Source: an uncultured Clostridia bacterium (lineage in GTDB: Bacteria; Bacillota; Clostridia; TANB77; CAG-508). Taken from it: 64,000 nt of DNA. Shown in pieces: positions 29,422 to 53,109 of the stretch. Positions within the stretch are counted from its first letter, which is position 1. Each line of letters begins with the position of its first letter. Under the pieces are notes generated by a model. The model did not search any database and had not been told where the DNA came from. It saw nothing but the letters and a program-made list of their open reading frames with translations. Made by a program: the position numbers and the translations under genes. The stretch is taken from the NCBI GenBank assembly GCA_946529215.1, contig CAMMZC010000001.1, positions 158,180 to 222,179 on the forward strand, written 5' to 3'.

Positions 29422-29489
29422 ATAATAACATATTTTTTTTGCTTCTTCAAGTATTTTTGTCGAAAAAGCAAAAAAATTTTTCGACAAAA
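29422..29489 (-). promoter_or_regulatory. promoter of the MazF-like gene with an upstream inverted TTTTGTCGA pair
   Basis: Minus strand TTGAAG (29450-29445), 17 nt, TATTAT (29427-29422). Palindrome TTTTGTCGAAAAA-N9-TTTTTCGACAAAA at 29455-29489. Confidence 0.4.
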
Positions 29490-49804: not shown

Positions 49805-50887
49805 ATGAGTATTCAAAATGAATTAAGAAAAGAAGGAATAGAAATAATAACCAAACTTGACCCATTAATTTCAAATGATATATGTAAAAATGTTTCTCGT
49901 AGAATTGTAGAAACTTTTCCAAACTTTGAAATTACTGAAGAAGAGCTTTGTAAAGAACTTTCACAAATAACTATGTACAGAGCTAAAATGATTGAAGGAA
50001 TGGCAGAAGCAAATTATTATTATAAAGATTCTTCTATCTACTTTAACGAAAATATAGATTATTCAGATATTGAAGAATTTGCAATTCATGAATGTATTCA
50101 TCATATTCAAAAAATCCAAGATGATGATGGTAAATTATTAAAACTTGGTCTATGTACCTATAATAATCTTAAACCTACAGGGCTAGCCTTAAATGAAGCC
50201 GCTGTTCAATATACTTCATGCATTATAATTGGAGTAGATGCAGATTTTGAAAAATATTATGGAATTTCTCTTGTAACACCTAGTCCTTCATACTACCCTC
50301 TTGAATGTAGTTTGCTAAATCAACTTATATTTTTCACAGGAAAAGATATATTATTTAAAAGTACCCTATTTTCTACAGATGATTTTAAAAATAAAATTAT
50401 AGAGATAACTTCTGAAAAAACATACAAAAAGCTTTTAGTTTTATTAGATAGTATATTAAAATATGAAGAAAAAATAGTTATTTTAAACAATAAAGCTTTT
50501 TCTTTAAAAGATGGAGATTCAAAAGCTGATAACATTAATAAAAAAATAGAAAATTTAAAAGAAAAAATTTCTAACAATTACTTAAAAACACAAAATATAA
50601 TAATAAAAGAGTTTTTCGAATATGAATTTAATAAAATTTCTAACCTTGAAGAATTAGAGCAATTTAGACATAAATTATCAGATTTTGCTGAATTAATTGG
50701 AACAACGGAAGATTACACATTTTTTGATAATTATTATGTAGAAACAATGAATAGTTTAGAGCATAAATGTAATATGTTGGAAAATGGTGGTCAAGAAACA
50801 GCACTATCTAAAAAACGTACAAATCCAATTTTGGCGTTTTTGCAAAAATTGTTCAAATATAAAAATTCGAAAGAATTTGATATATGA
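49805..50887 (+). CDS. hypothetical protein with HExxH (putative zinc-metallopeptidase) motif
   Basis: 360 aa. EFAIHECIHHIQ contains H-E-x-x-H. The C-terminal half looks helical/coiled. AAGGAG RBS. Confidence 0.45.
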   Translation: MSIQNELRKEGIEIITKLDPLISNDICKNVSRRIVETFPNFEITEEELCKELSQITMYRAKMIEGMAEANYYYKDSSIYFNENIDYSDIEEFAIHECIHHIQKIQDDDGKLLKLGLCTYNNLKPTGLALNEAAVQYTSCIIIGVDADFEKYYGISLVTPSPSYYPLECSLLNQLIFFTGKDILFKSTLFSTDDFKNKIIEITSEKTYKKLLVLLDSILKYEEKIVILNNKAFSLKDGDSKADNINKKIENLKEKISNNYLKTQNIIIKEFFEYEFNKISNLEELEQFRHKLSDFAELIGTTEDYTFFDNYYVETMNSLEHKCNMLENGGQETALSKKRTNPILAFLQKLFKYKNSKEFDI

Positions 50888-50930: not shown

Positions 50931-51635
50931 TCACACGCTCCGTCTTTGTTCTAGAAATTCAATTATTTTTTTATTATAATTCAAATTTTCACTATACATA
51001 TTTTCAATATCAACAATATCTTTTAAATCATTATTTTTAAATATTTGTTGAATATCTATATCTTTCGAAAAATATGTAACCTCTTTATATACTTTGGATT
51101 TTTTATTTTTAGAAAAAATAGCTATAATCTTGTTGTCTTCAATTATGTTATTTTTCAAATTGTCTTGAATTAATGTTTTAGGATAATAATATTTCATTTT
51201 TTCATTATTAGAATTTAACTTTGAAAAACCTAAACAGAAGTGTGTATTTCCAACGACTTTCTCAATTTTAATATTTAACTTATTTTCATTATATTCACCT
51301 ATTCTTTTAGCACTTTTACTAATATACATTGCATTTTCTAAAATTTCTAATTTTAATTGAGTAAACTGCTTATCTTTAATTTTTATACTATTAGGTGAAA
51401 TTCTATTTTTTAAACATTCTTTAAAAAACTCTTCTGCATTCTTTTTATACTTTATTCCTGTAAAATGTAAAAAGTTTTGCCCTAAAAATAATGTTTCTAT
51501 AAATTCTATTTTTCTATTTTTCTTGTCTTTAAAAATAAATATAATATTTTTATTTAAAAGATTCGTCTTATATTTTTTTGCGCTTTCACATATTCTATTT
51601 ATTATTTCTTTGTTGTTATAATTATTGTAATACAT
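50931..51635 (-). CDS. uncharacterised 234-aa protein, candidate nuclease toxin (NFLHFTG motif, possibly PBECR/BECR-fold)
   Basis: RBS TAGGAGATAT before the ATG at 51635. Motif block FIETLFLGQNFLHFTGIKY ... RIGEY ... HFCLGFSK ... YYYPKTLIQD recalls (from memory, unverified) the PBECR4 family. Preceded by a repeat array and a terminator hairpin. Confidence 0.5.
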   Translation of the reverse strand: MYYNNYNNKEIINRICESAKKYKTNLLNKNIIFIFKDKKNRKIEFIETLFLGQNFLHFTGIKYKKNAEEFFKECLKNRISPNSIKIKDKQFTQLKLEILENAMYISKSAKRIGEYNENKLNIKIEKVVGNTHFCLGFSKLNSNNEKMKYYYPKTLIQDNLKNNIIEDNKIIAIFSKNKKSKVYKEVTYFSKDIDIQQIFKNNDLKDIVDIENMYSENLNYNKKIIEFLEQRRSV

Positions 51636-51659
51636 ATATCTCCTATCTCATAAACTTAT

Positions 51660-51700
51660 AAATGGGCAATATTTTGTTCAACTCAAAATACTACCCATTT
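51660..51700 (-). terminator. hairpin (attenuator/terminator) between the repeat array and the 234-aa ORF
   Basis: Minus-sense AAAUGGGUAGUAUUUU-GAGUUGAAC-AAAAUAUUGCCCAUUU. This is 16 bp with two G-U pairs on the minus strand. The same positions would be C-A/A-C mismatches on the plus strand. Followed by AUAAGUUUAU. Confidence 0.55.
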
Positions 51701-51709
51701 AATGTACGG

Positions 51710-51861
51710 TTTTTCCGTTGTGTAGTCAACAACAGGTCTATTCACCCTGCACTAATTCCTACATTGTCTTGCAGTCTGGCCTGCATTACTTGTTTAGGTT
51801 CCAGATTTTTCCGTTGTGTAGTCAACAACAGGTCTATTCACCCTGCACTAATTCCTACATT
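51710..51861 (-). ncRNA. two identical 56-nt direct repeats (96-nt period), candidate repeat-type antitoxin RNA
   Basis: TTTTTCCGTTGTGTAGTCAACAACAGGTCTATTCACCCTGCACTAATTCCTACATT at 51710-51765 and 51806-51861 (56/56 identical), separated by a 40-nt unique spacer. Lies between a perfect promoter and a hairpin. The strand is inferred from that promoter and hairpin. Confidence 0.55.
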
Positions 51862-51895
51862 ATTATAGAGCCGTACCTCTTTTTATACTATATTC

Positions 51896-51924
51896 ATTTT
51901 ACTATAAAATTATGTAAATGTCAA
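51896..51924 (-). promoter_or_regulatory. sigma-A promoter driving the repeat array
   Basis: Minus strand TTGACA (51924-51919), 17 nt, TAAAAT (51901-51896). Confidence 0.6.
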
Positions 51925-51934
51925 GAAAAACATT

Positions 51935-51953
51935 TCGACAAAAATCGACAAAA
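51935..51953. promoter_or_regulatory. two direct TCGACAAAA repeats with 10-nt period, 10 nt upstream of the -35
   Basis: TCGACAAAA at 51935-51943 and 51945-51953. The same 9-mer pair occurs in inverted arrangement at 29455-29489. Confidence 0.35.
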
Positions 51954-52017: not shown

Positions 52018-53109
52018 TTAAGGTTTTATCGAAACTTTTGCACTCTTTGGACAAATATTAATCCAAGTGTTTCCATCATTTACTTCTAAAACTTCTCCTG
52101 TTGTAGCATTTGTATATATAGTTTTACTTCTTCTATTTTCTTTTTTACATTTAATTTTTATTGCTTTTCCATTAGTAATATAATATCCATCAAATGTTCC
52201 TATATTGTGTAAATCTTGTCTATCCTTTGTCGTTCCATCATTTAGTTGTGAATTATTTGCAAACATTATTATAATATTTTTTGTTGTAATACTTTTTCCT
52301 GTTGTGTAATCTTTTTGAAGAACTCCTCTTGCATATCTTGTATATCTACCAGTTTTCGAATCATATTTATATGTAACATTTTGCATATATGAATGTGGTA
52401 TTTTTACTTCTGTAGCTTTTTGTCCATCTGCAAGTTCTACTTCTTCACTTGCATATTTTAATACACTTGAAACATTTGAAGTAGTTTTATAATTGTTCTT
52501 TTTTGCAGCTTGCAAAATTGTTTTTGTAGAAGTCATTGCATTGTGTGGAGCTTTTTTTGCAGAAATTCTCCAAAATGTTGGCTTTCCATAATAAATTCCA
52601 TTTATATTGTTTATTCCTAAACTAGAAATATCATTTTTAGCTTTTGGGCTCCATCCATAATGTGCATAAATCGCATCATTTTCCATTACGTAGTCTAAGA
52701 AGTAATGTCTTGAACTACGTACAGGTCCTATAGTATCTACATCTTGTCCTTTAAATAATGCCATTAACCTTGTTTCTCCACCTTCTACAATTATTTCATA
52801 AACAAGATATGTTTTGTTTAGTCCTGCTTGTGGCCATGCTCCTTTATGGTTATCTATCATTACAGCAATTGGTCTGTCATCACCTTTAAAAATCTCCGCT
52901 TCTTTTTTTACTTCCATTTGTGGTTCTTCTGTTACTTCATTTTCGGTAACATCATTTTCAACATCATTTGATTGTGCAATTTGTGTATTTTGAGCATTCT
53001 TTTTATCTAAAAATATTTTTGTTCCCAAAACAGCTCCTAAAATTACTATTACTGCTATAATAGCGATTATAAAAATACTTTTTTTAGACTTTCTTTCTTT
53101 TCTTGACAT
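52018..53109 (-). CDS. DUF3048-family (YerB-like) secreted/anchored protein
   Basis: N-terminal anchor, then RPIAVMIDNHKGAWPQAGLNKTYLVYEIIVEGGETRLMALF, characteristic of DUF3048. Confidence 0.75.
   Translation of the reverse strand: MSRKERKSKKSIFIIAIIAVIVILGAVLGTKIFLDKKNAQNTQIAQSNDVENDVTENEVTEEPQMEVKKEAEIFKGDDRPIAVMIDNHKGAWPQAGLNKTYLVYEIIVEGGETRLMALFKGQDVDTIGPVRSSRHYFLDYVMENDAIYAHYGWSPKAKNDISSLGINNINGIYYGKPTFWRISAKKAPHNAMTSTKTILQAAKKNNYKTTSNVSSVLKYASEEVELADGQKATEVKIPHSYMQNVTYKYDSKTGRYTRYARGVLQKDYTTGKSITTKNIIIMFANNSQLNDGTTKDRQDLHNIGTFDGYYITNGKAIKIKCKKENRRSKTIYTNATTGEVLEVNDGNTWINICPKSAKVSIKP

Follow-up and report, generated by a model that had tools for sequence, protein, structure and literature searches.

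We describe a gene for a solo PBECR4-domain protein, and the leader RNA predicted upstream of it, in an uncultured Clostridia bacterium (GTDB lineage Bacteria; Bacillota; Clostridia; TANB77; CAG-508). The DNA analysed, called the window below, is a stretch of 64,000 nt from assembly GCA_946529215.1 (contig CAMMZC010000001.1, positions 158,180 to 222,179), and coordinates are positions in it unless another locus is named. On its minus strand, from 51950 to 50931, the sequence and the list of open reading frames (ORFs) give in this order a promoter, two identical 56-nt repeats, a terminator-like hairpin, a ribosome-binding site (RBS) and a 234-aa ORF. Compensatory base changes among related loci show that the predicted RNA is a closed pseudo-twofold structure under selection, with a domain-swapped double pseudoknot. 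We consider it fairly probable that the module is a type III-like RNA-protein toxin-antitoxin (TA) or abortive-infection system, in which a ribonuclease (RNase) of the Barnase-EndoU-ColicinE5/D-RelE (BECR) group would be the toxin and the pseudo-dimeric RNA its antitoxin. The original prediction, made on the letters of the window, had proposed an undescribed RNA-antitoxin or abortive-infection system built on a different nuclease fold; the comparison supports it in silico, the function itself being predicted.

Covariation defines an interlocked leader RNA

Related loci were collected by pattern scans of genomes and metagenomes, which gave 7 loci only, and mostly by exact-protein look-ups and tblastn against plasmids and phages. 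A covariance model of the repeat core was built on 31 cores (RNAalifold and covariance model). In the core alignment, 98.7% of the cells were paired, versus 24-50% when the partners were slid, and all five pairs of the first hairpin (HP1) showed compensatory changes. The model matched exactly the two repeats in the window and found two matches per locus in the relatives, with one single-unit exception. The repeats (51806-51861 and 51710-51765) are direct and 56/56 identical, just as they had first been read, with a start-to-start spacing of 96; no further copy was found in the 64-kb window, and 0 matches were expected in shuffles.

Each repeat is one unit of the fold. Unit 1 (51806-51861, minus strand; covariance model R1: 71.1 bits, E 2.9e-15) is made of the pseudoknot strand UGUAG (51859-51855), HP1 (51845-51829), a second hairpin, HP2, of the form GUUG-ACUACA-CAAC (51826-51813) and the A-rich segment GGAAAAA. 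Unit 2 (51710-51765, minus strand) has the same sequence, with UGUAG at 51763-51759, HP1 at 51749-51733 and HP2 at 51730-51717. The second hairpin had originally been drawn as GUUGU/ACAAC, a register that the relatives do not keep; the conserved form is a GUUG/CAAC stem with the loop ACUACA. Between the units lies an element (51771-51805, minus strand) composed of a tail, a linker and a hairpin, which covariation resolves as an H-type pseudoknot: the loop CCAGA (51779-51775) of the hairpin GCAG/CUGC (51784-51771) is the partner of tail a1, UCUGG (51805-51801), and the linker AAACAAG is conserved and unpaired. This conserved element had been taken for a unique 40-nt spacer. Upstream of unit 1, the 5' hairpin P0 (AGAG-GUACGG-CUCU, 51867-51880, minus strand) exposes a loop (51876-51871) that pairs with the 3' tail a2, CCGUAC (51704-51709, minus strand), which closes the fold.

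The whole leader was examined in a 15-locus alignment carrying a hand-derived structure with four bracket types. Here 98.2% of the cells were paired, versus 17-41% when the partners were slid, and 15 pairs were changed on both sides, versus 3.8 in shuffles. In the closing helix between the P0 loop (GUACGG) and the tail (CCGUAC), 97.8% of the cells were paired, two pairs were changed on both sides, and covarying variants were seen (GUAUGG:CCAUAU and GUAUAG:CUAUAC). The P0 loop and the tail are also complementary, with wholly different sequences, in at least 10 other lineages, and complementarity holds in all lineages (locus L003 included after re-parsing). The pairing of tail a1 with the inter-unit hairpin loop occurs in six covarying types, with four of its five pairs changed on both sides.

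The pairing of UGUAG with the HP2 loop is what interlocks the two units. Where the units of a locus differ (L020/L027, L026), the 5' strand of unit 1 fits the loop of unit 2 and vice versa. Tabulated over 11 lineages, the inter-unit pairing was Watson-Crick in 97 of 97 positions, and further lineages agree; the intra-unit alternative gave 70 Watson-Crick pairs, 11 G-U pairs and 15 mismatches in the same tabulation. The pseudoknot in cis, within one unit, was rejected on this comparison. A UGUAG:CUACA pseudoknot had been foreseen from the window; the pairing is real, but it had been placed within a single repeat and covariation puts it between the units. The G-U pairs of the helices mark the RNA strand as the sense strand of the PBECR4 gene. 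Two small plus-strand ORFs of 68 and 85 aa that overlie the repeats were rejected as genes and regarded as by-products of the repeats, the covariation having the pattern of RNA helices.

The PBECR4 protein is a predicted ribonuclease

PBECR4 stands for phage-Barnase-EndoU-ColicinE5/D-RelE-like nuclease 4. The ORF (50931-51635, minus strand) encodes a solo PBECR4-domain protein, predicted to be a metal-independent endoRNase of the BECR fold and a putative toxin. Its 234-aa product matched the Pfam family PBECR4 (PF18813) with an E value of 4.7e-28 and 99.3 bits against a cutoff of 27, over profile positions 1-187 of 188. This was its sole significant Pfam match, Abi_2 giving none, and the relatives compared likewise match PF18813. 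The protein had been recognised at first reading as PBECR4-like and not ToxN/AbiQ-like, and this assessment was correct, since no sequence relation to ToxN, CptN or AbiQ was detected. No match was found among the PADLOC defence models and NCBIfam, PHROGs gave only a weak match of unknown function, and a profile search of the sequences in the Protein Data Bank (PDB) gave no relative of solved structure, the solved ToxN, CptN and AbiQ chains included.

Among 25 diverse sequences, reaching down to ~21% identity, H57, G60, K95 and P152 are invariant, and position 154 is mostly Thr, with Ser in most of the others. The RNase signature of PBECR domains, which are predicted to be metal-independent RNases, combines a C-terminal Thr/Ser with a His located in the region of the N-terminal helix (Iyer et al. 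2017, PMC5512222). The signature is present in the protein of the window (H57 and position 154), and H57 falls within helix 52-59 of an AlphaFold2 (AF2) model. Compared with BFVD, this model retrieved two unnamed phage proteins (E about 1e-8). The assignment to the BECR fold is a prediction taken from Pfam and the literature, and by its conserved residues the protein looks like an active RNase. The relatives form 1687 clusters at 50% identity and are mostly solo proteins of 200-240 aa.

The leader RNA accompanies PBECR4 in distant lineages

About 16 independent PBECR4 lineages were inspected (Clostridia, Enterococcus megaplasmids, Pediococcus, Lactiplantibacillus, Macrococcoides, Bacillus, Erysipelothrix and a 4.3-kb Avibacterium plasmid), and the same upstream RNA architecture was found in all but one. 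Whether homologues carry upstream repeats had been named as a check of the original prediction, and the answer is positive: homologues from 93% down to ~21-32% identity have upstream repeat RNAs and a terminator hairpin, different in sequence with a covarying architecture in common. The clostridial relatives (93% to 40% protein identity) share the leader in every case, in the order promoter, P0, unit 1 (UGUAG, HP1, HP2, GGAAAAA), tail, A-rich linker, second hairpin, unit 2, second tail, 16-19-bp hairpin and RBS; in them HP1 is variable and HP2 (GUUG-ACUACA-CAAC) invariant. The same topology, built from unrelated sequence, was found in a metagenome-assembled genome of goat-rumen Clostridia (L003), in the Erysipelothrix 'phage' phi1605, in megaplasmids of E. 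faecium and E. durans and in plasmids of Macrococcoides, Pediococcus and Lactiplantibacillus.

The number of units is 1, 2 or 3 across lineages. That the repeats are not strictly tandem, which the original prediction had pointed out, is true of the window and does not hold as a family trait, compact relatives being tandem. In the 4.3-kb plasmid of Avibacterium paragallinarum the repeats are strictly tandem, with a 57-nt period, and differ at three positions, two of which lie in the pseudoknot strand and loop and compensate across units. Three units are present in a Bacillus sp. FDAARGOS_235 plasmid (plasmid 3; L035, 1165-1360), where the pseudoknot partners are swapped between units 1 and 3 and the strand of the inserted middle unit pairs within that unit. 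Single-unit leaders were found at L025 and in Pediococcus (L037), and in both the strand and loop that are kept are exactly complementary. At L037 (1356-1779, Pediococcus pentosaceus LA0061 plasmid), the strand comes from unit 1 and the loop from unit 2; from its sequence, this one-unit leader looks like a repeat-to-repeat deletion of the two-unit form seen at L033. The PBECR4 gene that follows it encodes a truncated product of 98 aa.

Flanking genes differ in every lineage and include DUF3048, RelB/YafQ, glycosyltransferases, an HTH protein, MntP, a reverse transcriptase, Rep/Mob and a type III restriction subunit. At the loci inspected, neither a conserved protein neighbour of PBECR4 nor a conserved small ORF accompanying the gene was found. 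The leader RNA is the only constant partner of the PBECR4 gene.

Two loci carry more than one copy of the module. At L024 (5040-5945), the first module is followed ~1.4 kb downstream by another PBECR4 gene, a diverged paralogue preceded by a compact two-unit leader of its own. The two leaders differ in their pseudoknot and tail sequences, which suggests, as far as pairing can be read from them, non-cross-reacting pairs. At L004 (652-2266), leader and gene occur together as a tandem duplication that repeats after ~1354 nt. Identity between the leaders is 93-94%, and the gene is apparently split in two ORFs in its first copy. The L004 leader fits only partially, with the closing helix and one pseudoknot.

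The E. faecium-type leader was present, unannotated, in 79 plasmid records, directly upstream of a PBECR4 gene where coordinates were compared; the Enterococcus carriers are mostly E. faecium plasmids, including megaplasmids of >200 kb. A leader 96% identical to it was also seen in NZ_AP027740.1 (6789-6963), a record of 16.5 kb whose label names a plasmid of the methanogen Methanobacterium petrolearium; contamination, mislabelling or recent transfer may explain this. No relatives were found in the viral contigs of IMG/VR, by protein pattern or by RNA core motif. When the region of the window and 10 related loci were compared with Rfam 15 at a permissive threshold, no leader match with E <=1 was obtained. 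Directly downstream of the Pediococcus PBECR4 gene at L033 (2225-2317, minus strand), the sole sub-threshold match of this comparison was seen, to RatA (RF01776), with 44.2 bits against a gathering score of 49. RatA is a type I antitoxin RNA.

A candidate RNA-antitoxin module

If the module is a TA or abortive-infection system, we would expect it to work as follows. From its layout, one constitutive promoter would give an RNA of ~190 nt. Most transcripts would end at the hairpin before the ORF, so that RNA would be in large excess over protein, and read-through would supply the PBECR4 mRNA. According to the covariation, the RNA would fold into the closed pseudo-twofold form, with HP1 and HP2 in each unit, strands swapped between the units and the tail held on the loop of the 5' hairpin. 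The folded RNA would bind PBECR4, probably with one protomer per unit, and would hold the RNase inactive; possibly the RNase might also cut the RNA within the conserved A-rich tracts. If phage takeover, loss of the plasmid or, possibly, sporulation signals brought transcription to a halt, the RNA would decay faster than the protein, and the freed RNase would cleave cellular or phage RNA and arrest growth.

A broader proposal, to which we give an even chance, is that PBECR4 and its leader form a new and widespread RNA-antitoxin family with a single-chain, interlocked RNA, present in Clostridia, Bacilli, Erysipelotrichia, Pasteurellaceae and Enterococcus plasmids and, in Clostridia, possibly wired to Spo0A. 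No description of an RNA partner for PBECR4 was found in the searchable literature or in Rfam 15, and to our knowledge a domain-swapped double pseudoknot closed by a helix between a hairpin loop and a tail is new for antitoxin RNAs. Since 2012, type III TA systems have comprised three families with one toxin superfamily. AbiF was recently found to act like a type III TA system (PMC12373285). If our reading is true, a BECR-fold RNase is under the control of an unrelated and far more elaborate RNA, RNA antitoxins evolved repeatedly for different nuclease folds, and the solo-PBECR4 family (~1700 clusters at 50% identity) would gain its first functional context. The RNA would form a new structured class, of interest to structural biology for its unusual interlocked topology, and the module would likely serve maintenance or defence on Enterococcus faecium megaplasmids and small Pasteurellaceae plasmids.

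Several points weigh against a TA system. Transcription of the RNA, toxicity of PBECR4, binding between RNA and protein and neutralisation are all predictions, the module being known from sequence alone. In the window, the U-tract after the hairpin is weak and a consensus scan called no terminator there; efficient termination is not assured because of this weak U-tract. In the relatives, by comparison, U-runs are clear and the terminators are canonical, with hairpin and U-run. In the known type III systems, the antitoxins that the toxin cuts out are short repeats, 34-45 nt in length. The RNA described here is long and closed by long-range pairing; a processed array, a single-chain inhibitor that stays uncut and a regulatory leader would all fit it equally well. 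The solo PBECR4 gene of a Lactobacillus gasseri plasmid (L034, 297 aa, distant) has no recognisable leader RNA upstream. The AF2 model of the window protein (mean pLDDT, the predicted local distance difference test score, of 76; residues 117-159 poorly modelled) gave no Foldseek match in PDB with E <0.9. Finally, the PBECR domains of phage polyvalent proteins evidently work without RNA (PMC5512222).

The strongest competitor, which we consider unlikely and still ahead of those that follow, is a purely cis-acting leader, a riboswitch or attenuator that would sense a ligand, a protein or stress and set the read-through of the terminator, neither binding nor inhibiting the protein. The position of the RNA as a 5' untranslated region directly before the terminator-like hairpin would suit such a role, as would its tertiary fold, highly conserved and aptamer-like in complexity, in which there are unpaired nucleotides that do not vary, and the RCd22 RNA of AbiF likewise acts in cis through premature termination (PMC12373285). 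However, no conserved antiterminator pairing was seen by inspection, without a dedicated search for alternative folds, and the 3' tail adjoins the terminator stem and does not overlap it. Repeat antitoxins usually vary in unit number, as the leader does from 1 to 3, which would be unusual in an aptamer, and a solo predicted RNase toxin that lacks a conserved protein partner would still require a neutraliser. Moreover, regulation in cis and inhibition in trans are compatible.

It is improbable, in our judgement, that the RNA joins PBECR4 in a working ribonucleoprotein and serves there as a cofactor, guide or specificity element and not as an inhibitor, an echo of the proposed route from AbiF to Cas13. 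RNA and gene are strictly linked in distant lineages, the invariant single-stranded A-rich tracts and the AAACAAG linker could touch protein or target, and the literature ties RNA-TA systems to RNA-guided nucleases (PMC12373285). On the other hand, nothing in the RNA looks like a variable spacer, what varies being stems with internal covariation, and a terminator layout favouring excess RNA is a signature of antitoxin stoichiometry.

We give hardly any credence to the idea that the repeats act as DNA (iterons, att or recombination sites, a transposon end, an operator) or arose not long ago by a chance duplication. In the window the copies do not differ at all (100% identity), which alone could suggest recent duplication, and tandem TGTCGAA boxes nearby are repeats at the DNA level, but compensatory changes keep the pairing in every helix, the long-range ones included, and the G-U pairs are strand-specific, so that an iteron, an att site or a mobile-element end, the last two being possibilities the original prediction had raised against itself, is excluded as their origin; in addition, the repeats always lie between promoter and terminator in the orientation of the gene, and the flanks differ in every lineage with no element ends seen.

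Comparison with known RNA-antitoxin and BECR systems

An RNA antitoxin paired with a PBECR4 toxin would resemble the type III systems ToxIN (AbiQ/antiQ), CptIN and TenpIN in having one promoter, direct RNA repeats, a Rho-independent terminator and an endoRNase gene. Pseudoknotted repeat RNAs with conserved A-rich tracts, and a location on plasmids, chromosomes and phage-like elements, are also common to them and to the module. In CptI and TenpI the A-rich tracts are structural parts of the pseudoknots, these two RNAs share a low repeat number with the RNA described here, and some tenpIN members have non-identical repeats, as here (PMC12283969). As for type III systems in general, the layout is promoter, repeats, terminator and putative toxin ORF, and the repeat RNA is defined and pseudoknotted, with three pseudoknot helices. 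In contrast, the putative toxin is PBECR4, with no detectable similarity to ToxN, CptN or TenpN; the units are longer, with cores of 55-60 nt and a period of 57-103 nt; and they are interlocked in one chain by the domain-swapped pseudoknot and closed by the helix between 5' hairpin loop and 3' tail. Repeats are processed by the toxin in the three known families, whereas processing is only putative for a closed single-chain fold. We do not count the module as a member of toxIN, cptIN or tenpIN, given that Pfam, PADLOC and the PDB sequences indicate no toxin homology.

In type II systems of the RelE/YoeB type and in barnase-barstar, a BECR-fold RNase is curbed by a co-encoded protein inhibitor. 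The module would share with them a BECR RNase and a co-encoded inhibitor, but the inhibitor would be RNA. With the PBECR domains of phage and conjugative polyvalent proteins it shares PF18813 and the signature of His and Thr/Ser. Solo PBECR versions have been noted in phages and mobile elements (PMC5512222). The polyvalent-protein domains differ in being described as injected offensive effectors, for which no RNA partner, immunity factor or TA-like organisation is described (PMC5512222).

A close parallel in organisation is AbiF (Abi_2) with its RNA (RCd22 in C. difficile, and PbAbiF-ncRNA; abiF motif, RF03085), where a non-ToxN RNase toxin likewise follows a two-motif non-coding RNA and a terminator in one transcription unit. 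In C. difficile, AbiF/RCd22 has two RNA motifs and a terminator upstream of the non-ToxN toxin; RCd22 neutralises AbiF in two ways, acting in cis through termination and in trans through binding, and two motifs are bound by a dimer of the protein (PMC12373285). By analogy, we regard AbiF/RCd22 as the best mechanistic model for the locus. The differences are that AbiF has a HEPN-like Abi_2 fold, as against the BECR fold predicted for PBECR4, that the RNAs are unrelated, no RF03085 match being found here, and that the two abiF motifs are independent hairpins linked by a single strand, whereas the units described here are predicted to be base-paired to each other. With neither an Abi_2 domain nor RF03085 detected in it, the module is not assigned to the AbiF/abiF-motif group.

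Expression signals of the module

The promoter (51896-51924, minus strand) is of the sigma-70/SigA type, TTGACA-17-TAAAAT, with 11 of 12 consensus matches; its sequence and place agree with the first reading of this DNA, it is the best promoter-like match of the region, and the relatives have an equivalent promoter at the same distance from the 5' hairpin. The RBS and the ORF were likewise recovered on the minus strand as originally read; the RBS, AGGAG (51640-51644), is evident by direct reading and lies 4 nt before the ATG.

RNA folding placed the terminator-like hairpin, with its weak U-tract, at 51660-51700 on the minus strand, between the leader RNA and the ORF. Its position, and the observation that two of its pairs are G-U only in the minus sense, were as first described; the stem, first given as 16 bp, folds as 17-18 bp. 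It is uninterrupted in minus-sense RNA only, the plus-strand version having internal loops. An equivalent hairpin precedes the ORF in 15 of 15 clostridial loci, with -16 to -25 kcal/mol and differing stem sequences. In the window its loop (51683-51677) is GAGUUGAAC, which is kept in most clostridial loci, and the stem covaries. This conservation hints at a role of the loop beyond termination. The loop GAGUUGAAC also resembles the 5' half of HP2 (GUUGAC).

Genomic context and Spo0A-like boxes

In the window, the module is flanked on one side by a DUF3048 gene (52018-53109) and on the other by a convergent 360-aa ORF (49805-50887, plus strand). The product of this ORF has an HExxH motif (IHECIHH) and no Pfam match; at L021, the nearest related locus, the ORF is missing and the module is followed by tilS and ftsH instead. 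Elsewhere, the module occurs on chromosomes, on plasmids, conjugative megaplasmids among them, and on a phage-like element. The 4.3-kb Avibacterium plasmid carries rep, mob and the module only. At some loci the neighbours are RelB/YafQ, a reverse transcriptase, a type III restriction subunit, Fic or a superinfection-exclusion gene. Such contexts are typical of TA or addiction and defence modules.

Directly upstream of the -35 hexamer, the sequence of the window has two tandem boxes, TGTCGAT-N3-TGTCGAA (51934-51950, minus strand), which may be an operator. Of 18 clostridial loci, 12-13 (the window, L021, L017, L014, L006, L022, L028, L020, L027, L023, L002 and L003) have tandem TGTCGA(A/T)-N3-TGTCGAA boxes upstream of the module promoter; the distance between these boxes and the -35 hexamer varies. 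We take their sequence to match the Spo0A '0A box' consensus, TGNCGAA. On this resemblance, the module may be under sporulation-linked (Spo0A) control in Clostridia. In the window, TGTCGAA occurs 6 times, versus 1.9 expected, and a further pair, in inverted orientation and 22 nt apart, was seen at 29458-29486.

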